64,000 nucleotides of DNA from Solirubrobacteraceae bacterium (GTDB lineage: Bacteria; Actinomycetota; Thermoleophilia; Solirubrobacterales; Solirubrobacteraceae). The notes under the pieces are model-generated. The model was not told the DNA's origin. It ran no database searches and saw only the letters and a program-made list of their open reading frames with translations. Below, in pieces: positions 6,607 through 59,402 of the stretch (its first letter is position 1; each line of letters begins with the position of its first letter). The position numbers were made by a program, and so were the translations under genes. The DNA lies in contig JAUMFO010000025.1 in assembly GCA_032119795.1 (NCBI GenBank), forward strand, positions 4,334-68,333, in the 5' to 3' direction.

Positions 6607-8838
6607 CTAGGCCGCTCGGCGCGGCACGCTCGGCGCGGCGCCGAGCGGGTCGCCATGGTCGAGCGCCGTGGCGATCTCTGCGGCGGGGAGCGGCCTGGCG
6701 AAGTGGTAGCCCTGGCCGGTCTCGCAGCCCCAGCGAGTCAGCAGCTCGACCTGCTCGCCGTACTCGACGCCCTCGGCGACGACGGTAAGCCCAAGCGAGT
6801 GGGCCAGCCCGATGACGCCCTCGACGATGGCCGCGTCCTCGGCACCATCGAGGAGGCCGTCGACGAACGATTTGTCGATCTTGAGCGTGTTGACGGGCAG
6901 CAGCTGGCGCAGGTGGCTGAGTGAGGCGTAGCCGACGCCGAAGTCGTCGACGGCGAGGCCGACGCCCAGTTCGATCAGAGCGGCCAGCGTGCGCGTGGTC
7001 GACTCGCTGTCTCCCAGGACCGCCGTCTCGGTGATCTCCAAGCAGAGCTGCTGGGGCCGAATCCCAGAGGACTCAATCACTCGGCGCACCGTGTCGACAA
7101 GGCCGGGGCCCGTGAGCTGCTGGCTGGCGACGTTGACGGACACCTTGAGCGTCTGGTCGCCCCATTCCGCGAGCTGCCGACATGCCTCTTCGACCACCCA
7201 GGTGCCGATCGCGACGATCGTGCCGTTCTGCTCGGCCAACGGAATGAAGTCCGCGGGGTTCACCAGTCCGATGGTCGGGTGTTGCCAGCGCAGCAGCGCC
7301 TCAACGCCGGTGATGTGGCCGCTGGGCAACTCCACGAGCGGCTGGTAGACCAGGAAGAGTTCGTCGCGCTCCAACACCGAATGCAGCGAGGATTCGAGTT
7401 CCAGTCGTTCCATCGCGCGGCGGCGCATCTCCTCATCGAAGATGTCGCAGCGGCCTTTGCCGAGCTGTTTGGCGCGGTACATGGCCGAGTCGGCGTCGCG
7501 GAGGGCAATGTCGGCGTCGACGGGCTCGTCGGCTGGGCACAGCCGAACGCCCATCGAGCTACTGACGTAGATCGGTTCGCCGTCGATGAAGACCGGCGTG
7601 CGGAGTTCGTGCACGATCCGCTCGGTCATCGCCACGGCGTCGGCCTGCTGCGCGCTGCCGCCAAGCAGGATCACGAACTCGTCGCCACCGAAGCGGGCAA
7701 CCACATCGTCCGGACCCAGTGCGGCCTGCAGTCGAGCAGAGAAGGCTTTGAGCAGCTCATCGCCAGCACCATGACCAAGCGAATCGTTGACGACCTTGAA
7801 GTCGTCGAGATCCAGGAACACGACGCTCGTGCCCGTCCCCTCGGCGATCGAGTCTTCCAGGCACCGCATAAACATCACGCGGTTCGGCAGGCCCGTCAGC
7901 GCGTCATGGTGGGCGCGCCAAAGGAGATCCGATTCAAGCGTGCGCCGGCGAGTGACGTCGATGCAGTGACTGATCCAGCCTTGGTGATTGCCGGACCCGT
8001 CATGAAGCGGCGCGTGGCGCCACTGGCCCCAGCCAGAGCCGTCGGCGTGGCGGAGCTCTAGGGAGTGGTGGCCGGGAAAGGTCTCGCCCGCCAGATCGGC
8101 GGTGTCGATGAGTTCACCGAGGTTGCGGCCGACGAGGTCGACGCCCTCGGTCGCGGCGTTCCAGCGGCGCAGCAGTGCGCCATTGACCTCATGAATCTCG
8201 CCTTGAAGGCCGACGAGCGCCATCCCGATCGGGGCGTCGTTGAAGGCGCTCCCAAACCGCTCTTGGCTGTGGGCCGCGGCTCGCCGCGACTCCTCGTTGA
8301 CCCTCCACCCGATCAGGCAGATGATTCCCTGCGCGCCGATGAACACGGCGTGGATGACCGACCATTTGAGCGGGTGCTCGATCGCGTCGGGGTGGTCGAA
8401 GACGGAGGAGGCCGACGCCAGGCTCATCGTGAGGTGGTGGACGAGCACGTAGGCAAACGCCAGCAGGTAGGGGAACCACTCCTCGTAGAGGGCGAGCAGC
8501 GCCACCATCACGAAGAAGTGGAAGTGGGCCTCGACGGCCCCTTCCATCAGGTGGACCAGGATCGCCGAGGCGCTCAGGAGCCCCAGGGCGACGGCAGCCT
8601 CACGCAGGCGGCGGCTCAGCCTCGACTGCATCGCGAACGCCGCCGGGACCGCGAGCGGCACCACATCCAAGATCGAATGCCCGACACCGAACCCCTTGAG
8701 CAGCCCCCAGAGCAGCATCACGGGGATGTGCGCGAGCAGGACGTACGTCATCGCGCGGTGGCGCGACTCCCATTGGTCGGGGGGCAGGCTGTGACCCTTG
8801 GGCAGCCACGCGCGGATCGATGAGAGCACTTCAGGCAT
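6607..8838 (-). CDS. membrane-anchored PAS/GGDEF/EAL protein (diguanylate cyclase/phosphodiesterase)
   Basis: N-terminal multi-TM region, RFGGDEFVILL (GGDEF), GVEALLRW (EAL), and DDFGVGYASLSHLR typical of EAL domains. ATG at 8838. Confidence 0.9.
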   Translation of the reverse strand: MPEVLSSIRAWLPKGHSLPPDQWESRHRAMTYVLLAHIPVMLLWGLLKGFGVGHSILDVVPLAVPAAFAMQSRLSRRLREAAVALGLLSASAILVHLMEGAVEAHFHFFVMVALLALYEEWFPYLLAFAYVLVHHLTMSLASASSVFDHPDAIEHPLKWSVIHAVFIGAQGIICLIGWRVNEESRRAAAHSQERFGSAFNDAPIGMALVGLQGEIHEVNGALLRRWNAATEGVDLVGRNLGELIDTADLAGETFPGHHSLELRHADGSGWGQWRHAPLHDGSGNHQGWISHCIDVTRRRTLESDLLWRAHHDALTGLPNRVMFMRCLEDSIAEGTGTSVVFLDLDDFKVVNDSLGHGAGDELLKAFSARLQAALGPDDVVARFGGDEFVILLGGSAQQADAVAMTERIVHELRTPVFIDGEPIYVSSSMGVRLCPADEPVDADIALRDADSAMYRAKQLGKGRCDIFDEEMRRRAMERLELESSLHSVLERDELFLVYQPLVELPSGHITGVEALLRWQHPTIGLVNPADFIPLAEQNGTIVAIGTWVVEEACRQLAEWGDQTLKVSVNVASQQLTGPGLVDTVRRVIESSGIRPQQLCLEITETAVLGDSESTTRTLAALIELGVGLAVDDFGVGYASLSHLRQLLPVNTLKIDKSFVDGLLDGAEDAAIVEGVIGLAHSLGLTVVAEGVEYGEQVELLTRWGCETGQGYHFARPLPAAEIATALDHGDPLGAAPSVPRRAA

Positions 8839-26620: not shown

Positions 26621-28000
26621 CTACGAATCGAGCGCCGCCAACATCGAACGGGCCGCGCGCTGCCCGGAGCGCAGGGCCCCGTCCATCGTCGCCGGACGCT
26701 CGACACTGGTGTGTTCGCCGGCCAACACCAGGCGCCCCGCGGGCTGCCCGAGCGCCTGACGATCGCGGGAGCTCGCTCGCGGAGGGAGGAACGAGTAGGA
26801 GCCACGCGCCCACGGATCTGCGCCCCAGCGCGTCACGATGCTGCTCTCCGGCTGTCGCGCCTCAGCGCCAAAGCCGCGAGCCAGCTGGTCGGTCACGGCT
26901 GACACGACCTCACCGTCTTCCAGCCTTTCCAGTGCGCGGGCATGGCTCGCGCCAACGAACGCCGCCACGATCGGCGCTTCGGTGACCGCCTGATAGTCGA
27001 ACACCCCCACCGTTCGACCGATGGTGTCGCCGACGACGCCAAGCTGGGTGCCTGGTTCCCACATCGCTTCTGGGTACCGCAAGACGACTTTGTTGAGGAG
27101 GCCGACGGCGATGTGCTCAATCGCGCGGCGCATCGCAACCGGGAGCAGCGGAGTGAACTCGATCCCGCCCGCCTTGAGTACTCCGAGGGGGACCGTGAGG
27201 ACGCATCCATCGGCAGAGATCTGCTCTCCGCTAGCGAGCTCGACGGTGACCCCGTCGCCGCTGCGCGACACACGCGTCACCGGCGCCGACCGCCGCACGA
27301 CGGTCCCCGAGGCCACCGCCTCGACGAGTTGGGCCGCACCGCCGCGCAGCAGCCGATCGCCACCGCCACGGTAGGTCTCTCCTTCGTCGAATGCGACCAA
27401 CGAGAGTTCGCCAGCATCCGCACCGAGATCCAAAGGAATGTCATTCCCCAGGAGCCAGTCGAGCGTGGTGCGCCGAACTCCCGTCAGCCCCGTTCGGCGG
27501 CGCGCCTGCGCGAGCAGCGGCGCTAGGCGGTCTCCCGGGTCGGCGCTCGCCGCCGCCTCAGCGATCTCTTCCATCACGGCCTCTTGCGCCTCAAGTGCCG
27601 CCGCCAGATCGGCCGCGGCCACGGAGCTTCCACCCGGACGCCGCAACTCAAGCCGTTCGTAGTCGGTCGTCACGGTCGTGATGCCCGACTCGCGAGCGAC
27701 CGCCGACAGCGGATTACCGCGGTGATCATGGATCCAACCGGCGCCGAGATCAACCGGGACGCCGAGTGAGCGGTCGGTCACGACGCGACCTCCCAGGCGG
27801 TCTCGTGCCTCGAGCACGGTCACCGTGGCACCCGCCCTGCGAAGATCACCGGCTGCTGCCAGCCCAGCCAGCCCAGCTCCGACCACGACCACATGCCGAC
27901 CGGCTCCGCTGGCAGCAGCAGACCCACATGCCGGAAGCAGAGCGCACGCCGCCACGGCGCCGATCAGGAACTGACGACGATCGATGAGCGGCGCAGACAT
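26621..28000 (-). CDS. FAD-dependent (flavin) amine oxidase with Tat/lipoprotein signal
   Basis: MSAPLIDRRQFLIGAVAACALLPACGS (twin-Arg plus lipobox). Dinucleotide fold VVVVGAGLAGLAAAGDL...VLEARDRLGGRV. Confidence 0.85.
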   Translation of the reverse strand: MSAPLIDRRQFLIGAVAACALLPACGSAAASGAGRHVVVVGAGLAGLAAAGDLRRAGATVTVLEARDRLGGRVVTDRSLGVPVDLGAGWIHDHRGNPLSAVARESGITTVTTDYERLELRRPGGSSVAAADLAAALEAQEAVMEEIAEAAASADPGDRLAPLLAQARRRTGLTGVRRTTLDWLLGNDIPLDLGADAGELSLVAFDEGETYRGGGDRLLRGGAAQLVEAVASGTVVRRSAPVTRVSRSGDGVTVELASGEQISADGCVLTVPLGVLKAGGIEFTPLLPVAMRRAIEHIAVGLLNKVVLRYPEAMWEPGTQLGVVGDTIGRTVGVFDYQAVTEAPIVAAFVGASHARALERLEDGEVVSAVTDQLARGFGAEARQPESSIVTRWGADPWARGSYSFLPPRASSRDRQALGQPAGRLVLAGEHTSVERPATMDGALRSGQRAARSMLAALDS

Positions 28001-28080
28001 CCGGTGACGGTACTGCGTCTGACTCGGGTCACCGGGCGCCTCGAACCTGCACGTCGGGCAGCTCCGGCGCGGCCGGTGCG

Positions 28081-31278: not shown

Positions 31279-31334
31279 GGTCAGGTTCACCTCACGGGCG
31301 TGACGCAGCGCGGCGGCTTGGCTACGGTCGCGGG

Positions 31335-32537
31335 ATGTCTCGTCGTCTCGCCTCACTGATCGCGTCGGTTGCCCTGGCCGTCGCGGCACTCTCCACGGCG
31401 TCGGCTGCGCCAGCCGCGGGCGCGCCGTCGACCGTCTGGGCCTGTCTCCCCGGCGTGGTTCCTAACCCGTGCGAGGGGTCGCTCGAGACGACGCATCTGC
31501 GTTCGACCGTCCTGCAGGCACGCAACGTGGAGCGGGTCGAGACGCCTGCGGTCGACGCCAGCCGCCCCGTGGACTGCTTCTACGTCTACCCCACGGTCGT
31601 CAGCCTCCCGCGCGCCAACGCGCCGCAGTACGTCACGAGCGAGGTCAAAGCGATCCTGGAGTACCAGGCGTCGCGCTTCTCGCAGGTCTGCAAGGTCTTC
31701 GCGCCCGTCTACCGGCAGGCGACGTTGTTCGGGATCGTCGGTCCCGTCGCCGGTGGCGAAGGCAAGGCCACCGCCTCCGAGCCTTCTCCGACGTTCGCGC
31801 TGGCCTACGCCGACGTGAAGCGCGCGTGGAACGAGTACCTGGCGACCCGCAACGACGGCCGCGGAGTCGTCCTGATCGGCCACTCGCAGGGCAGCGGCAT
31901 GTTGATCCGGCTGCTCCGTGAAGAGATCGATCCAAGCCCCGAGCAGCGCGCCAAGATCGTCGCGGCGATCGTCCCCGGCGGCAACCTGACGGTGAAGCAG
32001 GGCCAGCGCACGGGCGGCGACCTGACGCACATCCCGACCTGCGCAACCGCGGCCGAGACGGGCTGCGCCATGGCCTGGTCGCTCTACGGCAGTGCACCCG
32101 CGAAATCCGCGCTGTTTGGCAGCATCAAGAGCAGCCTGCGCACGTCGACGGGTCTTCCGACGCCCGACGACACGGAGGTCGTCTGCACCAACCCGGCCGA
32201 GCTTTCCGGCGACGGTGGCCGCTTTGAGACGTACACCCGTCGCGAGGCCTTCCCCGGCCTGATCGGCGTCGCCCTTCGCGCCATGTACTTCGGGTTGCCG
32301 CCGCAGGCGTCGACCCCGTGGGTCGCGCCGGGCGAGCGCTACAAGGCGAGCTGTCGCCGGGTCCGCAACGGCCACGTGCTGATGGTCCGCCCCGCAAGCG
32401 CCACCACGATCCTGCCGATCGAGTCGCCCTGGCCAGACTGGGGCCTGCACCTGGCAGACGTCAATCTGCCGCTGGGCAACCTCGTGCGACTCGTACGGGA
32501 GAAGAGCGCGGCCTACGCGGCCGCGCACCCCTCCTAG
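31335..32537 (+). CDS. DUF3089-like secreted alpha/beta hydrolase (paralog 2)
   Basis: ATG at 31335 inside the fused track ORF 30189..32537. MSRRLASLIASVALAVAALSTASAAPAAGAPSTVWACLPG..., VDCFYVYPTV, GHSQGSGML. Collinear with paralog 1. Confidence 0.75.
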   Translation: MSRRLASLIASVALAVAALSTASAAPAAGAPSTVWACLPGVVPNPCEGSLETTHLRSTVLQARNVERVETPAVDASRPVDCFYVYPTVVSLPRANAPQYVTSEVKAILEYQASRFSQVCKVFAPVYRQATLFGIVGPVAGGEGKATASEPSPTFALAYADVKRAWNEYLATRNDGRGVVLIGHSQGSGMLIRLLREEIDPSPEQRAKIVAAIVPGGNLTVKQGQRTGGDLTHIPTCATAAETGCAMAWSLYGSAPAKSALFGSIKSSLRTSTGLPTPDDTEVVCTNPAELSGDGGRFETYTRREAFPGLIGVALRAMYFGLPPQASTPWVAPGERYKASCRRVRNGHVLMVRPASATTILPIESPWPDWGLHLADVNLPLGNLVRLVREKSAAYAAAHPS

Positions 32538-32550
32538 CCCGCACGCCGCC

Positions 32551-32688
32551 TCAGCTCGCCGCCCCGCGGCGCCGGTGGCGGCGTGCGCGCCACCAGGTGC
32601 CCAGGCCGGTGGCGAGCATGAGCGCCCCCGGCGACGCGCCGAGCATCTCCTCGACCGGGAAGCCGCCGACGTGCCCGAGCACGCTCAT
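32551..32688 (-). CDS. candidate micro-ORF (45 aa), single-TM with Arg-rich tail
   Basis: Below the track length cutoff. The ATG lies 12 nt after the amine oxidase stop. MSVLGHVGGFPVEEMLGASPGALMLATGLGTWWRARRHRRRGAAS. Codon position 3 is almost entirely G/C. Confidence 0.35.
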   Translation of the reverse strand: MSVLGHVGGFPVEEMLGASPGALMLATGLGTWWRARRHRRRGAAS

Positions 32689-32700
32689 GCTGCCCGTGAC

Positions 32701-36396: not shown

Positions 36397-36572
36397 GAAC
36401 GTGCCTCTGGGGTCTTGGGGGGCGGGGCGGCTTAGGGGGGAAAGCCAGATTGACCCGGACGCTGCGGCCCACTTCTGAGCCACGACGCGTTGGCGGGCAT
36501 CTTGCGCCTCGCTGCAGCACCTCCACATGGCCCGGTGGCCAAAGCGGCGGCCCGCGATACGGCCCTTCGGCC

Positions 36573-36597
36573 TAATGGCCTTCGTTCAAGGCCATTA
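36573..36597. promoter_or_regulatory. perfect 10-bp inverted repeat, candidate operator upstream of permease
   Basis: taatggcctt-cgttc-aaggccatta in an AT-richer patch, about 180 bp upstream of the permease start. Confidence 0.4.
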
Positions 36598-36626
36598 TCG
36601 CGGAATGCCCCGATTTCTCGGGCGAT

Positions 36627-36648
36627 TTGTCGTACCGCGGTGCGACAA
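36627..36648. promoter_or_regulatory. 22-bp near-perfect palindrome, candidate GntR/FadR-type operator
   Basis: ttgtcg-ta-ccgcgg-tg-cgacaa (one mismatched pair), with a TGT..ACA-type outer half-site. Confidence 0.4.
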
Positions 36649-36722
36649 TGCTCGGCGCGTTTGGCCTCGGTGGCCAGCGCGGCGGCTCGGGGCGGGCGAC
36701 GGCGTCCCTCGCCCCGGACGGG

Positions 36723-37496
36723 CTAGAGGTCGGCGAGCAACTCGCGGACGTTGTCGGCCGTCCACGCCGCGTGGGTGCGCATCGCCGCTGCTGCCGCGTC
36801 CGGGTCGCGGGTGGCGATCGCCTGGAGAATGGCGTCGTGCTCGACGGCCGTGCGTTCCTGCCAGACCGGGCTCGCTGGCCGGGCGAGGAGGGCATCATTG
36901 AGGATCAGGCGCACCTGGACGACGGCCTCGTGCACGAAGGAGTTGTGCGACGCCGACGCGATGGCGAGGTGAAACGCGTTGTCGCGGGCCGTGAAGGTCG
37001 CGTCGTCCTCGGCCTCGGCGCTTGCGGCGCCTTCCGCGGCGACCGTGATGAGGTTGAGTTCGGCGTCCGTTCGCACCACTGCTGCGAGCGCCGCTGCATG
37101 CGGCTCGACGATCTCTCGGAAGGTGAGCGCCTGAACGATCGCGTCGCCGCTGCGGCGCAGCCGGGCGAGCAGGTAGTCGCGGGCCAGCTCGTCGTCGTGG
37201 AGCGACAACACGAACGTGCCGCCGTGGCGCCCCCGCTTGGTGACGACAAGCCGCTCGGCTTCCAGGAGCCGGATCGCCGCCTGCACGGTCGCGCGCCCGA
37301 CCCCGAGTTCCTCTGCGAGGTCGCGATCCGACGGCAGCGAGTCGCCCGCGCGCACCAATCGCAGCGTGATTCGCCGGCGGATCTCCTCCGCGACATGCTC
37401 GTGGGCGCGCAGCAGGCGAGCCCGCTCCAGCGAAGGCCCCGCCAACGCTGGCATCACAACCGGGGCGCCAGCCCCATCGGTGTCGACGGACGTCAT
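36723..37496 (-). CDS. GntR-family (FadR/FCD subfamily) transcriptional regulator
   Basis: Winged HTH GDSLPSDRDLAEELGVGRATVQAAIRLLEAERLVVTKRGRHGGTFV plus a helical FCD-like C-terminus. ATG at 37496 (alternative at 37547). Confidence 0.85.
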   Translation of the reverse strand: MTSVDTDGAGAPVVMPALAGPSLERARLLRAHEHVAEEIRRRITLRLVRAGDSLPSDRDLAEELGVGRATVQAAIRLLEAERLVVTKRGRHGGTFVLSLHDDELARDYLLARLRRSGDAIVQALTFREIVEPHAAALAAVVRTDAELNLITVAAEGAASAEAEDDATFTARDNAFHLAIASASHNSFVHEAVVQVRLILNDALLARPASPVWQERTAVEHDAILQAIATRDPDAAAAAMRTHAAWTADNVRELLADL

Positions 37497-37603
37497 CCCG
37501 GCCAAGCGTACGCGCGGCGGCGGGATGGCGCCAAGGCGGGAGTGCACGGCGGCGGCGGGGAAGCACCGTTGGGGGCGACTGGACTCGACGGCCGATGCGG
37601 TGA

Positions 37604-37770
37604 CTGGGCGGTTGGCGGCGTCGGGACTTCGCCGTCGCTACGGCATTTGAGCGAGTTGGCGGCGGCGGATTCTCTATCGCTTCGGGATCGGCGGGCGCCT
37701 TCGCACCGAGGGCGGTGCGGGTTGGCGGCGTTTGGGCTGGTTGGCGGCGGTGGGACTTCGATCGCCTGGC
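37604..37770. repeat. left arm of large degenerate palindrome (4x TTGGCGGCG core)
   Basis: Collinear with the reverse complement of 38170-38375. For example, 37604-37644 against the RC of 38335-38375 matches at 31/41 by hand alignment, and gcaccgagggcgg (37703-37715) has an exact RC at 38221-38233. Confidence 0.75.
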
Positions 37771-37790
37771 GGCCGGTGGGCGCCGGGCGG

Positions 37791-37814
37791 GCCGCAACCG
37801 CTGGCGGTTGCGGC
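37791..37814. repeat. palindrome GCAACC-N6-GGTTGC (copy 1, 10-bp stem)
   Basis: gccgcaaccg-ctgg-cggttgcggc. Confidence 0.8.
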
Positions 37815-37884
37815 GGCGAACTCCCGTCACGTAGGGGTGTTCAGCGACGGCAAGTGACCGGAGTTCGTTTCGATCGGGCGAAGT

Positions 37885-37902
37885 GCAACCCACAGCGGTT
37901 GC
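37885..37902. repeat. palindrome GCAACC-N6-GGTTGC (copy 2)
   Basis: gcaacc-cacagc-ggttgc. Confidence 0.8.
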
Positions 37903-38069
37903 GGCGTCGCGGAGGTCGCGCCCCGAGCGCCCTTTTTGGGCGTTCGGGACGCCAGCCCGGCTCGCACAACCCCTGAAGCTTGTATTGACCTGACATAACA
38001 GCGCCGCTAGGCGCCGTTCGCGCTCAAACCGCCGCACGCCCGGCGGTTTCAACGCGACAGCAAACCCCC

Positions 38070-38088
38070 GCAACCCCCAGGCGGTTGC
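38070..38088. repeat. palindrome GCAACC-N7-GGTTGC (copy 3)
   Basis: gcaacc-cccaggc-ggttgc. It is the mirror counterpart of copy 2 about the dyad axis. Confidence 0.8.
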
Positions 38089-38094
38089 ACCCCG

Positions 38095-38147
38095 CTGGTT
38101 GGACCCATCCTGGGCACGGCAGGCGTGCCTACTTTGGGTCCAACCAG
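38095..38147. other. perfect 13-bp-stem hairpin with nested 6-bp hairpin
   Basis: ctggttggaccca ... tgggtccaaccag. The 27-nt loop contains ggcacg-gcagg-cgtgcc. Confidence 0.8.
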
Positions 38148-38169
38148 TCCGCCCGGCGCCCCCAGACGC

Positions 38170-38375
38170 CGAAGCGATCTCAAATCCGCCGCCGCCAACC
38201 AGCGCAAACCACGACTCCGCCCGCCCTCGGTGCGGCGGCGCCCTCAGATCCCGCAGCGATCCCCATTCCACCGCCGCCAACGACCCAGACGCCGTACCGA
38301 GCCGCCAAGTCCCACCGCCGCTCACGACCTGGACGCCGCAACGGCCGCCAAGTCCCGCCACCGCCAGCGACCCAG
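38170..38375. repeat. right arm of large degenerate palindrome (4x CGCCGCCAA core)
   Basis: Reverse-complement counterpart of 37604-37770, with one extra unit of about 40 bp. It ends about 25 bp before the stop of the ABC-2 permease gene. Confidence 0.75.
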
Positions 38376-38400
38376 CCTCAACGCAGCCCGCCCCGCCCCG

Positions 38401-39273
38401 TTACAGGTCCAGCCGCCGCAGGCGCCAGGTCGCCAAACCGACGAGCACCGCCAGCTCAACGAGCGACACGAGCGCCAGCCCACTGGTGAGGTCACGCTGC
38501 TGGCCGAACGGGCCGAGCTGCAACGCGAGGCCGGCCAGGCCAGTGACGCCGTCCGTCAGCGATCCGAGCGCGCCTTCGTAGAGGGCGTTGAATCCGAGGA
38601 CGTCGGTGACACGCCCCGCCCACGTCGCGACCGCCTGGGAGCCCGTCGACTCGCCAATCTGCCGGACCAGGCTGGCGAAGAACCCGACCGAGATCAACAT
38701 GGTCGCGGCCAGACCGGTCGCCGCACTTCCCAAAAACGTCGACATCAACACCCCAAACGCCGCGACGATCGCCACGGCGCCCGTGAGCCCGAGGACGACC
38801 TGCGGCAGGTTGCCGGGCGCCGCGCCGCCCGCCGCCGTCGTCAGTGCACTGGCGGCCGTCACCACGATGGCGCAGTAGATTCCGCCAGCCACCGTCGCGG
38901 CCAGCACGCGCCCGCCGATCACGGCGCTCCGATCGACGGGCCGCACCAGGAGCGGCTGCAGGAGCCCCTGTTCGGCCTCGCCGCGGACGGTGTTCATCGT
39001 CGTAAACACCGCCAAGACCGATGCCAGCGAGAACGTGGCGAAGACGCCAATGCCGAGCAGGATGAAGCCGGCGCCGCGAGCCGTCTCCTCCGGCGGCACC
39101 CCTTGACTCACGCCGCGCTCATCGAGATCGCCGAGGATCTCAAACGCACCCCAGCCGTAGAGCGCCAGAAACCCGACGGTGATCACACTCACCACGAGCA
39201 GTGAACGCCGGTGGCGCAGCTCCGAGAGCGCAAGCATCATCACGAGGACAACGTCGCGTGGCCAGGCCGTCAT
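38401..39273 (-). CDS. ABC-2 type transporter permease
   Basis: Six hydrophobic segments. N-terminal SELRHRRSLLVVSVITVGFLALYG. ATGA overlap with the ATPase gene. Confidence 0.75.
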   Translation of the reverse strand: MTAWPRDVVLVMMLALSELRHRRSLLVVSVITVGFLALYGWGAFEILGDLDERGVSQGVPPEETARGAGFILLGIGVFATFSLASVLAVFTTMNTVRGEAEQGLLQPLLVRPVDRSAVIGGRVLAATVAGGIYCAIVVTAASALTTAAGGAAPGNLPQVVLGLTGAVAIVAAFGVLMSTFLGSAATGLAATMLISVGFFASLVRQIGESTGSQAVATWAGRVTDVLGFNALYEGALGSLTDGVTGLAGLALQLGPFGQQRDLTSGLALVSLVELAVLVGLATWRLRRLDL

Positions 39274-40205
39274 GCGCCGCGCTCCTCGCCGGTGGGGCGC
39301 GGCGGCACGGCCGCGGGACCACCGTCGCCGCCGTCGCCGTGAGCCTCCACGGCTCGTAGGTAGGCCTGTTCGAGGGTGCCGCGGAGCTCGCGGACACCGA
39401 AGATGCGCTCGCCCTGGCCGACCAGCCGGGCGATCTCCTCGGGGATCGCGTCGCGCGCGAGATCGGGCAGGCGCACCGTCCCGCTGGCCAGCTCGAACTC
39501 CACGCCGCCTGAGCCCCCGAGTTCGCGCGGCGCCCCCTCGGCGATCAGCTGGCCACGGGCGATGATCGCGACGCGGTCGGCGACCTGCTCCACCTCGCTG
39601 AGTAGGTGCGAGGAGAGCAACACCGACTGCCCGCGGGCCCGCAACTCTCCCAGGACGTCGCGCACGAGCGCACGGCCCACGGGATCCAGCGCGCTGGTCG
39701 GCTCGTCCAAGAGCACGAGCGCCGGGCGACCGATCAGCGCATGCGCCAAGCCCAGGCGCTGCTGCATCCCCTTCGACATCGCCCCGACCTTGACGGCCGC
39801 GGCGTCGCCGAGCCCGACGAGTTCCAGCAGCTCGCCGCGCTCACCCGCGCCGCCTGCGGAGCGCGCAAGACGCTGGTGGGTCAGGAGGAGCGCGTCGGCC
39901 GTCAGCCAGGGCGGGTAGCGAAACAGCTCCGCGAGGTAGCCAAGGCGCGCCGCCGCCGCGCGCGTTCCGGCCGGCTCACCAGCGATCGTGGCGCGCCCGC
40001 TCGTCGGCCGAACGAGCCCGCAGACGATCTTCGCGAGCGTTGACTTGCCGGCGCCGTTCGGCCCAAGCAATCCGACGACTTCGCCGGCCCCGACCGTCAG
40101 GTCAACGCCACCCAGGGCATCGCCTCGCCCCTTGCGCTGGGCGCCGCGGTAGCGCTTTCGCAGGTCGGTGGTCACCAGCGCAGCCGTCACGGTTGCCACT
40201 CTCAC
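39270..40205 (-). CDS. ABC transporter ATP-binding protein
   Basis: Walker A GLLGPNGAGKST, signature MSKGMQQRLGLA, Walker B LVLLDEPTSALD. GTG start. Confidence 0.9.
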   Translation of the reverse strand: MRVATVTAALVTTDLRKRYRGAQRKGRGDALGGVDLTVGAGEVVGLLGPNGAGKSTLAKIVCGLVRPTSGRATIAGEPAGTRAAAARLGYLAELFRYPPWLTADALLLTHQRLARSAGGAGERGELLELVGLGDAAAVKVGAMSKGMQQRLGLAHALIGRPALVLLDEPTSALDPVGRALVRDVLGELRARGQSVLLSSHLLSEVEQVADRVAIIARGQLIAEGAPRELGGSGGVEFELASGTVRLPDLARDAIPEEIARLVGQGERIFGVRELRGTLEQAYLRAVEAHGDGGDGGPAAVPPRPTGEERGA

Positions 40206-40242: not shown

Positions 40243-41241
40243 CTACTTGGCCACGGAGGCAGCCACCGACGTCACGCCGGCCCCTCCGATCACTACGCGC
40301 GCTTTGGCCACCCGCTTCTTGAGCGGAACGACCGTAGACACGTGGCAGAACTTGCCCTTCTTGATCGTGCCAACGGTCTGCCTGCCGACCGACTTGCCCT
40401 TGAGCGTGACGGCGATCTTCACCGTCTTGGGGCAGGTCTCCGACGTGGCCGTCAGGAGACGGTCGATCACAACGCGCTTGGTGCCGAGCCGAATCGACTT
40501 GGCGAGGGGCGCCGTTTCGCAGCCGTTGGTGGCCGCGCCGGCCTGCTTCGGGCACACGTCAACGCCATCATGGACGCCGTCACCGTCGGCGTCGAGAATC
40601 GGTGCGGGTTTGCCGTTGCCTGGGTCGACGACCGCGTTCGGCGTCTCGACGACCTCTGGGGCGTAGCCCACCAGGCGGTCCTCCGGGTGCGCGAAGTCGG
40701 TCGATCCGGAGCCGATCAGTCGCTCCGTCGTCACGACGATGCAGCGGAAGCCGCCCCCGTCGAAGATTCCTGGACCGGCCGGCGTCACGAAACTCACCGT
40801 GTTGCCGGTTCGCTCAACGGCGACGTCCTTGCGAATGTCGGTCATGGTCGAGATGACGTAGTCGGCGACGTTCGTGCCCATGTCGTGGCGGATGTGTACC
40901 CAGCCAAACCCCTTTGACACGTTGCAGCCGCTGTACCCGTCGAGGAGTCCCAGGCCGATACGCAGCTCGTGCAGCCCGGCTTCGGCCACGGCGCCGTTGA
41001 AGGTCACGGTGCCGCGCACGACCTTCGCTTCGCGGTCCTGCAAGATCGAGAAGCCGGTGATGTCGACGCCTGCCTCGGCGAGCTGGCCGAGATAGGTGGC
41101 ATCGCCGGTGACGTCGACGGCGTCGATCTGCACCGGAGCGAGCGGTGCGGCGCCGGCCGGCGCCGCCGAGAGCGCGAACGCCGAGGCGAGCAGCGCCGCG
41201 AGGCGGAGCAAGAAGAAACGACCAGGCAATACCGCGGGCAC
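40243..41241 (-). CDS. secreted hypothetical protein with TSP3-like Ca-binding motif (paralog B)
   Basis: Signal peptide FFLLRLAALLASAFALSAAPAGA. DADGDGVHDGVDVCP...ATNGC, then a Lys-rich Cys-containing C-terminal module shared with 41339..42316. Confidence 0.65.
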   Translation of the reverse strand: MPAVLPGRFFLLRLAALLASAFALSAAPAGAAPLAPVQIDAVDVTGDATYLGQLAEAGVDITGFSILQDREAKVVRGTVTFNGAVAEAGLHELRIGLGLLDGYSGCNVSKGFGWVHIRHDMGTNVADYVISTMTDIRKDVAVERTGNTVSFVTPAGPGIFDGGGFRCIVVTTERLIGSGSTDFAHPEDRLVGYAPEVVETPNAVVDPGNGKPAPILDADGDGVHDGVDVCPKQAGAATNGCETAPLAKSIRLGTKRVVIDRLLTATSETCPKTVKIAVTLKGKSVGRQTVGTIKKGKFCHVSTVVPLKKRVAKARVVIGGAGVTSVAASVAK

Positions 41242-41338: not shown

Positions 41339-42316
41339 TCAGCGCTTGCGCGTGGCGGCGATGGAGCCCATCCCCGCCGCGGTGACGGTGATTTTCACGC
41401 TCGTCTTCGCTTTGACCGTCTTCTTGAGCTTCACCACGCCGTAGGCGCGGCAGAAGCCACCGTGGGAGGAGACGCTCACCACTCCGGTGCCGAGCACCTT
41501 CTTCTTGAGCGTGACCTTCACCTTCGCCTTCAGCGGGCAGGCCGCTCCGGTGCGGGTGACCATCTTGTCGATCGCCACGCGCTTGGAACCAAGGCGGACG
41601 GACAGACGATCCGGGATGGTCAGGCAGCCGTTGGTGGCGCCGCCTGCCTCGGTCGGGCACTTGTCTTTGGCGTCGGCCACGCCGTCCTGGTCGCCGTCGG
41701 TGACCACCGGAATCTCGAACTTGACCGGGGCGACCAGGTTGGTGGCACCGCCAACGAAGAGGTTCATGGCGTCGGCGTCGACGTCTTCCAGAACGCCGTC
41801 GGCACCGACGACCGGGGCCTTGCTCTGCACCTGGGCGCAGTCGAAGCCCAGGCCTTGGAGGCCGGCGTCGGCAGCAATCGACGCCGTGATCGAGGTGCCG
41901 TCGCGCTGGACGGTGAGGTTGCCGTAGGCCAGCGGGTCGCTGAGGATCCACTGCAGACCCTCACCTTCGGGCGTCCAGATCATCAGGAACACGAGCACGC
42001 CGGCGCCCTCGCCGGTCGCCACGCACTGGCCACCTTCGGCCTTGCCGAGCAGGGCATAGAACGACGCGGGCATCACGCTGGCGCTGGCCGCGGCCGTCTG
42101 CACAGTGAGCGTCGAGGTGCCGGCGGCGGGGTCGAAGTCGAGTTTGGCGTTGACGAGGTCGAGCCCAGCCGTCGACGCGTCGACTGGGTCTGAGCCCGTC
42201 AGCGTGACGGCTGAAGCGGACTGCGCGAAGAGCGCGAGGGTGAGGAAACCGAGTGCGACGGAACAGAGCGCCTTGAGGGTGCGCAGCAGGTTCCGACCAG
42301 GGGCCGAATGGGACAT
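41339..42316 (-). CDS. secreted hypothetical protein with TSP3-like Ca-binding motif (paralog A)
   Basis: Signal peptide ALCSVALGFLTLALFAQSASA. TDGDQDGVADAKDKCP...ATNGC, then RLGSKRVAIDKMVT...CP...VTLKKK...FC...LKK. Confidence 0.65.
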   Translation of the reverse strand: MSHSAPGRNLLRTLKALCSVALGFLTLALFAQSASAVTLTGSDPVDASTAGLDLVNAKLDFDPAAGTSTLTVQTAAASASVMPASFYALLGKAEGGQCVATGEGAGVLVFLMIWTPEGEGLQWILSDPLAYGNLTVQRDGTSITASIAADAGLQGLGFDCAQVQSKAPVVGADGVLEDVDADAMNLFVGGATNLVAPVKFEIPVVTDGDQDGVADAKDKCPTEAGGATNGCLTIPDRLSVRLGSKRVAIDKMVTRTGAACPLKAKVKVTLKKKVLGTGVVSVSSHGGFCRAYGVVKLKKTVKAKTSVKITVTAAGMGSIAATRKR

Positions 42317-46419: not shown

Positions 46420-46448
46420 CTGGTTTGCAGACCGTCGCTGCAAACCAG
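46420..46448. promoter_or_regulatory. perfect 11-bp inverted repeat (hairpin/operator) upstream of repeat-protein gene
   Basis: ctggtttgcag-accgtcg-ctgcaaaccag, 28 nt upstream of the GTG at 46392 and about 140 nt downstream of the HTH gene stop. No U-tract. Confidence 0.35.
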
Positions 46449-46589
46449 AACGAGGCTGACGCGCCAAACCCCGCCAACGCCCCCGGGCCCGCGGCGACTG
46501 AGCTGGCTGGCAGCAGCGGATCGACGACCGCTGCTTGGCCTGAGGGCGCTCCGCACCGAAGGCGGAGCGGGTTCAGACCAAGAAGGCGC

Positions 46590-59266: not shown

Positions 59267-59402
59267 CCGGGGTCGAACTGGCTTCGGCTCGAGGTACTTG
59301 GGGTCGTCTTCTGTGAACGGCGCTGGAGCTGGTCGGCGGCGGTGGAACCCGACCGGACCCTCCGGGCGCTTCAGCGCTTGCGGCCGGAGCGGATCCAGGG
59401 CA

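Follow-up and report, generated by a model that had tools for sequence, protein, structure and literature searches.

One of the questions raised by the 64,000-nt stretch of contig JAUMFO010000025.1 from a Solirubrobacteraceae bacterium (assembly GCA_032119795.1), which we call the window, is what fills the long spacer between two genes of its - strand: an ABC-2 permease (38401-39273), whose stop side borders the spacer, and a GntR/FCD regulator (identified with Pfam), whose start side does. An earlier note on this DNA described there a gene-free gap with a degenerate palindrome and offered three explanations for it: a protein-binding array, a foldback element or cluster of intergenic repeats, and a structured RNA. 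Our analysis leads us to regard the gap (37497-38400) as probably one copy of a dispersed, non-coding, mosaic intergenic repeat that is restricted to a lineage of Solirubrobacteraceae and is akin to repetitive extragenic palindromes (REPs) and bacterial interspersed mosaic elements (BIMEs).

A non-coding gap with mirrored arms

The extent of the gap depends on the start of the GntR gene. Its ATG at 37496-37494 aligns with the MTSV/MASV N-termini of the orthologues, whereas the longest open reading frame (ORF) begins at a GTG at 37547, 17 codons upstream. Judging from this alignment, the gene probably starts at the ATG, and the annotated start is probably too long. Because we placed the start there, the gap measures ~904 nt and is longer than the span proposed in the earlier note (37548-38400), of which the gap itself holds and the starting point does not. 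The DNA of the gap is non-coding. The GC content by codon position is flat over ~37540-38320 (max-min 0.04-0.14), whereas the flanking genes are strongly periodic (0.3-0.5), and the three long ORFs that span the gap have no Pfam match, which agrees with their earlier dismissal as nonsense. The window has a GC content of ~70%, and the closest named relatives of its ABC-2 permease are metagenome-assembled genomes (MAGs) of Solirubrobacteraceae and Patulibacter. The earlier note took the gap for the longest stretch of the window without a credible gene; a crude gene call based on third-position GC leaves larger uncalled stretches, e.g. 26814-28080 and 31279-32700, some of which contain genes that the call missed.

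The gap contains a true imperfect palindrome of ~0.8 kb. An inverted-repeat search recovered the arm pairs 37655-37715/38221-38281 (61 nt, 82%), 37730-37790/38149-38209 (61 nt, 77%), 37646-37699/38155-38208 (54 nt, 80%), and 37604-37644/38335-38375 (41 nt, 76%), the last being the match of 31 out of 41 positions already counted by hand. A gapped local alignment pairs 37590-37790 with the reverse complement of 38149-38400 in one collinear stretch; of its 203 columns, 152 are matches and 7 contain gaps (~75% identity). The score of 89 compares with 18.4 ± 2.9 in 500 dinucleotide shuffles (maximum 30; z = 24). The right arm is longer than the left by ~54 outer bases, and this extra sequence, also noticed before, is built of 43-44-nt repeats (Tandem Repeats Finder: 44-nt period, 2.5 copies, 38268-38375). 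When the whole region is folded back on itself, the z score of the minimum free energy (MFE) is -18.5 on the - strand and -17.1 on the + strand.

Several short motifs are concentrated in the gap. Six of the 11 matches of the window to the core TTGGCGGCG lie in it (2.0 expected in the window), as do 6 of the 13 matches to GGTTGGCGGCGG with at most one mismatch (1.4 expected) and all three matches to GCAACC-N4-8-GGTTGC (37794, 37885, and 38070; 0.02 expected), a type of palindrome that the earlier note had placed there. Perfect hairpins whose stem reaches 11 bp or more number just 11 in the 64 kb, among them the one at 38095-38147, with its perfect 13-bp stem and nested hairpin. The spacing from core to core is irregular (19, 44, 66, and 82-85 nt). 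Almost all the features itemised in the earlier note were found where it had put them, including a dyad axis in the AT-richest patch: the midpoints of the arm pairs fall at 37968-37990, in the least GC-rich part of the gap. Its count of four cores per arm does not hold for the right arm, which has just two exact copies of TTGGCGGCG (38190 and 38272), the two others being degenerate (TTGGCGGCT/C). Its picture of a single degenerate palindrome of ~770 bp is right about the inverted arms, but these are better described as mirrored arrays of a unit of ~85 nt.

Copies at other loci and the anatomy of the unit

We scanned 185,579 genomes, one per species, for the 20-base pattern GGTTGGCGGCGNNGGGACTTCG and found 15 matches. 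Four are on separate contigs of a related MAG, GCA_016463515.1, which also provided L002, the locus syntenic with the gap. The other 11 are singletons in unrelated phyla and have no match to the profile of the unit, which we built from the alignment of the window arms with the related loci and searched with nhmmer. This profile matched both arms of the window, both arms of L010, the loci L008, L015, L019, and L024, and two further places in the window (46492-46573 and 59318-59385). The known copies thus comprise 3 loci in the window (two of them relics), at least 4 contigs of GCA_016463515.1, and 1 Logan contig. They lie between purN and purH (L010), between ispD and a tetR-family gene (L015), between a GNAT gene and a convergent gene (L008), upstream of an isocitrate-dehydrogenase-like icd (L019), and 100-150 nt upstream of a GntR orthologue that is 89.5% identical to that of the window (L024). 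All are extragenic and occur in all gene orientations, either behind stop codons or in spacers on the promoter side. The genes next to the copies examined have housekeeping functions, and no transposase or recombinase gene was seen beside them. The earlier note had suggested looking for the units in other intergenic regions; the answer is positive in kind, at unrelated loci of the related MAG. Because the family is scattered between unrelated genes, we read the gap as a repeat of the REP/BIME type or of the type of miniature inverted-repeat transposable elements (MITEs), and not as a control region of its neighbours.

Searches further afield returned no additional copies. Viral contigs gave 0 matches, the whole element had no blastn match among plasmids and phages, and a metagenome scan for GCACCGAGGGCGGTGC-N15-30-TTGGCGGCGG gave 0. 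A looser metagenome pattern, GTTGGCGGCGG-N60-90-GTTGGCGGCGG, had at least 120 matches, none of which fits the unit profile. The distribution of the family looks narrow and lineage-restricted, confined to a few uncultured Solirubrobacteraceae. Two loci that the loose pattern hit more than once by chance are repeats of another nature: L061 (1280-1700) carries an unrelated 88-nt tandem repeat with a Pseudomonas-REP-like GCGCTCCTAC motif, and L037 (7400-7950) an unrelated coding repeat with a period of ~78-80 nt.

The layout recurs together with the units. These are stacked as direct repeats, and two stacks face each other across a centre of short palindromic modules. In the window, L010, and L015, the cores to the left of the centre are all on the + strand and those to its right all on the - strand; in L015 the profile finds one unit on one side and three on the other. 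L008 has cores on its right arm (- strand) only, its left arm being degenerate. The order along each strand is a G-rich array, a GCAACC-N6-GGTTGC hairpin, one or more long central hairpins, and a C-rich array; in the window, L008, and L015, the GCAACC-N6-GGTTGC hairpin separates the array from the centre. The centres of the copies in the related MAG have a conserved hairpin in common, AACTCGACCCC...GGGGTCGAGTT. That of the window is longer, looks composite, and has other long hairpins (37817-37867, 37918-37952, 38018-38057, and 38095-38147) in addition to three GCAACC hairpins. A further hairpin module, GGTGCAGTTCTTCAG..., is common to L015 and L019 (92% identity), where its position relative to the array differs. 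The number of units per arm is variable, the centres differ among copies, the outermost units are the most degenerate, and the copies are 65-82% identical to each other. Since the modules are combined differently from one locus to the next, the elements are mosaics of a small set of modules.

Orthologous spacers can be filled or empty. The one between ABC-2 and GntR, ~904 nt in the window, has only 62 nt and no unit in L002 (ABC-2 86% and GntR 83% identical). The purN-purH spacer takes up ~880 nt in L010 and 72-164 nt in four relatives (L147, L149, L150, and L152), and the ancestral spacer is intact beside the element on the purH side of L010. These differences between orthologous spacers (orthologues 84-90% identical) imply that the elements are gained or lost locus by locus, which rules out a conserved regulatory structure of these operons and a decayed gene. 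The earlier note had proposed the comparison of the syntenic gap, where an intact gene in relatives would have betrayed a pseudogene; their spacers are short and hold no such gene. Direct repeats from flank to flank were sought in four elements (window, L008, L010, and L015), whose ends are not sharply defined for a search of target-site duplications. Among these four, the observed score was reached in 53/500 (L010), 334/500, 15/500, and 195/500 shuffles; no alignment clearly beats the shuffles, and none of the repeats lies at matching ends. In L010 the stop region of purN looks duplicated, but this was discarded as not significant (53/500 shuffles). The closest empty site, L002, is too diverged for a base-by-base alignment.

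Two observations concern the surroundings of the arrays. The junction downstream of the ABC-2 permease (window 36723-40205) differs in each relative examined: the next gene is GntR on the same strand (L002), a convergent GntR (L024), a convergent DUF3089 gene (L003 and L023), an isochorismatase (L005), or an amino-acid permease (L007), and the ABC-ATPase/ABC-2/GntR block of L002 is inverted relative to the window. This junction looks like a rearrangement hot spot. In addition, contigs end inside arrays in L001 (at 4559, 142 nt into the right arm), L019 (1949), and L024 (3073). The family breaks assemblies, and its copy number will therefore be under-counted in MAGs.

Alignment of the window arms with the loci of the related MAG gives a unit of ~85 nt, CGGCGTYTGGGCT-GGTTGGCGGCGG-YGGA-N8-GCGCTTCGSGG-N6-GGGCG-N3-GCACCG-AGGG-CGGTGC-GGG, with truncated forms of 44 and 19 nt that terminate in GGTTGGCGGCGGYGGGACTTCG. 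Across 13 aligned units (mean column identity 65%), the TTGGC-GC core, the GG, the GGGC block, and the loop and closing pairs (CG...CG) of the hairpin are invariant. The hairpin covaries: 82% of the cells are paired, a share that falls to 34-45% if the partner is shifted by 1-3 columns, and 4 pairs have changed on both sides. Its U-G pairs are confined to the G-rich strand and to outer positions of the stem. The GCAACC and central hairpins are conserved as sequence, without covariation. Such uneven conservation, with an invariant 12-nt core and hairpin loop between variable linkers, suggests that the core may be the recognition site of a protein. Together, the covariation of the unit hairpin and the conserved sequence of the core, GCAACC, and central stems point away from a large RNA fold and towards short motifs or hairpins recognised by a protein or a DNA-processing mechanism. 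A CRISPR-like array was ruled out, since conserved blocks recur in the stretches between cores, where a CRISPR would have unique spacers.

The palindromy of the arms is a consequence of the layout of the arrays and is not kept by pairing. Arms are 68-74% identical within an element and up to 79-82% identical between loci or genomes, and the two arms show no concerted evolution. Transversions make up 29 of the 44 arm-to-arm substitutions in the window, and the wobble-compatible changes have no strand bias (8 vs 7), L010 and L015 being alike in this. Because the arms of an element are no closer than those of different loci, and because transversions occur without wobble bias, long-range pairing of the arms is not maintained. 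Rfam has no match (E ≤ 1) in window positions 36500-39500, nor in L008, L010, L019, and L024, the sole match in the whole window being a tRNA-Thr. A scan of 37300-38600 for sigma-70 promoters and intrinsic terminators gave 0 sites.

Which kind of element fills the gap

The units and mirrored layout at unrelated loci, the solo units, and the 62-nt syntenic spacer favour the second explanation of the earlier note, that of a foldback element, a MITE, or a REP/BIME cluster. Two versions of it overlap, and we rank the mosaic REP/BIME-like cluster above a single insertion. The latter would be a non-autonomous foldback transposon, i.e. a MITE with long composite terminal inverted repeats (TIRs), inserted whole between ABC-2 and GntR, mobilised in trans, and since decayed. 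The long inverted arms, the lack of an internal ORF, the presence or absence of the element at the ABC-2/GntR and purN/purH sites (L010 retains an intact ancestral spacer beside purH), and the recurrence of the entire layout beyond the units all agree with it. We still find it unlikely: no flanking direct repeat clearly beats the shuffles in the four elements, the termini are not sharp and the arrays fade outward, the size ranges from 0.5 to 0.9 kb with a variable number of units and differing centres, solo units exist, and arms are no closer within elements than between these diverged copies (65-82% identical). It ranks lower because the variable unit number, differing centres, and solo units resemble BIME clusters or variable-number tandem repeats (VNTRs) grown in place after the arrival of a seed. 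A little less probable than the single MITE is that the arrays are a cis-element or foldback with a function for the host. The 12-nt G-rich core GGTTGGCGGCGG, with its four GG runs, and the loop-conserved hairpin would then form a multivalent platform for a protein, or arrays of two-quartet G-quadruplexes, and the polarity, 5'-G-rich on both strands, would set transcript ends or block read-through both ways. The protein on such a platform might be a hairpin- or core-specific recombinase, or else a nucleoid or insulator protein.

The remaining explanations are much less probable. A long structured RNA or a pair of small RNAs, either through arms that pair in a read-through or divergent transcript or through C- and G-rich repeat RNAs acting as sponges, would fit the very stable predicted foldback (z ~ -18), the covariation of the unit hairpin, with its U-G pairs restricted to the outer stem of the G-rich strand, and the frequent transcription of REP-type repeats as 3' untranslated elements mentioned in the abstract of PMC3733652. 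However, the arms themselves do not support it, with mostly transversions, unbiased wobble changes, and no greater closeness within an element; Rfam matches are lacking in the window and at related loci, as is any promoter- or terminator-like consensus; the GCAACC and central hairpins do not covary; and the element is absent from orthologous spacers of relatives. We give this reading very little credit, and slightly less to a protein-binding array with a dedicated local role, whether of operators for GntR/FCD (acting on GntR and perhaps on ABC-transporter read-through) or of an iteron- or centromere-like site. Such an array would explain why the near-invariant core GGTTGGCGGCGG is repeated on both sides of a less GC-rich centre and why an array also lies upstream of the L024 orthologue. 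Against it, equal arrays occur at the purN/purH, ispD/tetR, GNAT, and icd loci with no GntR nearby, the L002 orthologue has none, the core spacing is irregular, and the neighbours are housekeeping genes, with no replication or partition genes nearby. There is also a better candidate for the operator. GntR-type operators follow a GT-Nx-AC pattern, and a perfect palindrome, GCGTACGC, lies at window 37506-37513, 10-17 nt upstream of the start codon of the GntR/FCD gene. It has counterparts in L002 (~6915-6924) and L024 (~2797-2806, variant AGCGTACGCT), and is thus kept in 3/3 orthologous GntR loci amid unalignable upstream DNA. We regard GCGTACGC as a candidate autoregulatory GntR operator, separate from the repeat arrays. 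The least probable reading of all takes the gap for an artefact of assembly or for a gene or pseudogene duplication in decay, which the long spurious ORFs across the gap and the breaks of short-read contigs in arrays (L001, L019, and L024) might recall. The codon-position plot and Pfam effectively refute the coding version, the unit periods (43-44 and 82-85 nt) are no multiples of 3, relatives have no gene here, an independent Logan contig is identical to the right arm along the arm's first 142 nt, and the layout is repeated in independent assemblies.

Some points weigh against the mosaic REP/BIME-like repeat itself. The main gap in the argument is the number of copies per genome, from tens to perhaps a couple of hundred: the ~113 kb of DNA from relatives reached through protein look-ups contained the L024 array only, so the family may count tens of copies and not hundreds. 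The copies of the related MAG were retrieved with a pattern that includes the core, and part of the core's invariance is therefore due to ascertainment. The left arm of L010 contains a scaffold gap (a run of N at 1115-1214). The copies examined revealed neither a mobilising enzyme nor defined termini nor a target-site duplication, and there is no sign of recent transposition, since copies are just 65-82% alike. Finally, an array lies upstream of 2/3 of the GntR orthologues examined (window and L024); shared ancestry could explain both, but some room is left for a role linked to GntR.

If the gap is such a mosaic repeat, a seed copy would have been placed in an intergenic spacer, usually right after a stop codon, by an activity in trans, for which the likeliest candidate would be a recombinase or transposase encoded elsewhere that recognises the hairpin or the core. 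Arrays would then grow and shrink through slippage or unequal exchange between units. Effects on the host would be secondary: the GC-rich hairpins and the foldback may separate ABC-2 from GntR as an insulator or 3'-end barrier, and the element may also be a hot spot of recombination and of assembly breaks.

Comparison with known repeats places the element among dispersed intergenic mosaic repeats, as a member of no named family. By the definitions in PMC3184786 and PMC3733652, REPs are short (20-40 bp), GC-rich, imperfect palindromes that form stem-loops and are extragenic and abundant (tens to hundreds of copies per genome), BIMEs are clusters of REPs in alternating orientation with a small set of linker motifs, and usual bacterial MITEs measure less than 200-400 bp; PMC3733652 adds that the REP palindrome bears on one side a GTAG or CGTC tag that stays unpaired. 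Like the REPs, BIMEs, and REPINs of Enterobacteria and Pseudomonas, the elements described here are extragenic, GC-rich, hairpin-forming, dispersed, and clustered into mosaics, often just past a stop codon in the spacers of convergent or co-directional genes, at rearrangement hot spots, and in inverted arrangements able to fold into larger structures. Two of the modules, GCACCG-N4-CGGTGC (16-22 nt when its outer pairs are counted) and GCAACC-N6-GGTTGC (18-24 nt), have the size and form of a REP palindrome, and the varied combination of long units, short units, and GCAACC, AACTCGACCCC-type, and GGTGCAGTTCTTCAG hairpins in the window, L008, L010, L015, and L019 is BIME-like. The differences are a unit of ~85 nt (short forms 44 and 19) instead of 20-40, direct repeats in each arm with one switch of orientation at the centre of all full elements where BIMEs alternate, and a host from an actinobacterial lineage, Thermoleophilia. 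Nor is there a GTAG or CGTC tag beside the unit hairpin in the 13-unit alignment, where the flanks are YTC/TCC and GGG and the single GTAG is the loop of L019. REPs are also associated with a RAYT gene, an IS200/IS605-like tyrosine transposase flanked by the repeats; beside the copies examined here, in the 64 kb of the window and at the related loci, lie housekeeping genes.

MITEs such as Correia, ERIC, and RUP, and foldback elements, are also non-coding and intergenic, with inverted arms around a core, a stable predicted foldback, and presence or absence at orthologous sites of related genomes. Here the inverted arms are 75% identical over ~200 nt, but they are composite arrays and not simple TIRs, the element is larger (0.5-0.9 kb), its copies have diverged to 65-82%, the number of sub-repeats varies, solo units occur, and neither target-site duplication nor defined termini were found. 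Mycobacterial interspersed repetitive units (MIRUs) and other actinobacterial intergenic VNTRs share with it units of 40-100 bp, direct tandem arrays of variable number, a place in operon spacers, a high-GC host, and orthologous spacers of relatives that lack the array. MIRU arrays, as Supply and colleagues reportedly described them in 1997, always face the same way with respect to the operon and carry short ORFs overlapping the flanking genes. By this description, and not by sequence, they differ from the present arrays, which are mirrored, have periods that are not multiples of 3, contain central hairpin modules, and lack a coding signal. In Neisseria, the neisserial intergenic mosaic elements (NIMEs) consist of RS units flanked by dRS3 repeats, a short conserved repeat thus alternating with variable segments of 50-150 bp. 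The alternation of a 12-nt core with variable segments in a mosaic intergenic array recalls this description, but the arrangement here is mirrored, the sequences are unrelated, and nothing indicates that the core is the target of a phage or integrase.

A full-text search of PubMed Central and bioRxiv brought up no relevant text on the core motif and none on repeats of this kind in Solirubrobacter. If our reading is right, this would be the first REP/BIME/MITE-like repeat family described in Solirubrobacteraceae (Thermoleophilia). It would account for the breaks of short-read contigs and MAG scaffolds at particular intergenic spacers of these soil bacteria, offer VNTR-like markers for strain typing, and mark sites prone to rearrangement, e.g. 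the junction downstream of ABC-2. It would also caution annotators against calling long R/P/A-rich ORFs over such arrays. The general type is familiar, and the repeat indicates no new mechanism and opens no long-standing question. Its layout, in which direct arrays of 85-nt hairpin units face each other across hairpin modules and the polarity always runs from G to C, is unlike classical REPs, BIMEs, MITEs, and MIRUs, and the uneven conservation along the unit may betray a recognition protein that could be sought.

Feature coordinates and neighbouring sequences

Table 1. Parts of the element in the gap and solo units elsewhere in the window.
Feature	Position	Strand	Remarks
Left (GntR-proximal) arm, G-rich on + strand	37593-37790	+	Unit array 5'->3' towards centre; nhmmer E 1e-17, 1e-5
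Left-arm short unit	~37598-37631	+	Core 37610-37621 plus GGGACTTCG at 37623-37631
Left-arm long unit, ~85 nt	37640-37722	+	
Left-arm micro-unit, 19 nt	37720-37738	+	
Left-arm second short unit	37726-37760	+	Followed by GGGCGCCGGGCGG
Unit hairpin GCACCG-AGGG-CGGTGC, within long unit	37703-37718	+	Covariation; mirror copy ~38218-38233 in right arm
GCAACC-N6-GGTTGC hairpin 1, 10-bp stem GCCGCAACCG/CGGTTGCGGC	37791-37814	.	Equivalent module in L008 (896-913) and L015 (4887-4904)
Long hairpin CGAACTCCCGTCAC...GTGACCGGAGTTCG, 14-bp stem, 1 mismatch	37817-37867	.	Base resembles central hairpin of related MAG, GGGAACTCGACCCC
GCAACC-N6-GGTTGC hairpin 2	37885-37902	.	Pattern match
Hairpin GCGCCCCGAGCGCCC-TTTTT-GGGCGTTCGGGACGC, 15-bp stem, T5 loop	37918-37952	.	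Appears in MFE folds of both strands
Dyad centre, least GC-rich patch aagcttgtattgacctgacataaca	37968-37995	.	Arm-pair midpoints 37968-37990; no sigma-70-type promoter match
Hairpin TCGCGCTCAAACCGCCG-N6-CGGCGGTTTCAACGCGA, 17-nt arms, 88% complementary	38018-38057	.	Inverted-repeat search
GCAACC-N7-GGTTGC hairpin 3	38070-38088	.	Pattern match
Long hairpin CTGGTTGGACCCA...TGGGTCCAACCAG, perfect 13-bp outer stem, nested GGCACG-GCAGG-CGTGCC	38095-38147	.	First 8 nt are those of the unit-core start, CTGGTTGG
Right (ABC-2-proximal) arm, C-rich on + strand	38149-38386	-	Mirrored array; nhmmer E 1.5e-13, 4e-7
Right-arm truncated long unit	38156-38208	-	
Right-arm long unit	38220-38295	-	
Right-arm short units, ~2.5 of 43-44 nt	38268-38375	-	Fade out 15 nt before ABC-2 stop codon
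Solo degenerate long unit in another intergenic spacer	46492-46573	+	nhmmer E 3e-14; beside perfect hairpin 46420-46448
Weak degenerate solo unit	59318-59385	+	nhmmer E 4e-3; directly after stop codon of aldehyde dehydrogenase (Pfam)

The hairpin beside the first solo unit, CTGGTTTGCAG-N7-CTGCAAACCAG, has a perfect 11-bp stem, stands 45 nt from the unit, and begins with CTGGTT, as do the hairpin at 38095 and the core of the unit. On the other side of the ABC transporter, the - strand of the window encodes two conserved proteins of ~325-332 aa (40243-41241 and 41339-42316), which are found upstream of this transporter in all relatives. They belong to no Pfam family, and one of them has a sub-threshold match to the thrombospondin type 3 repeat.

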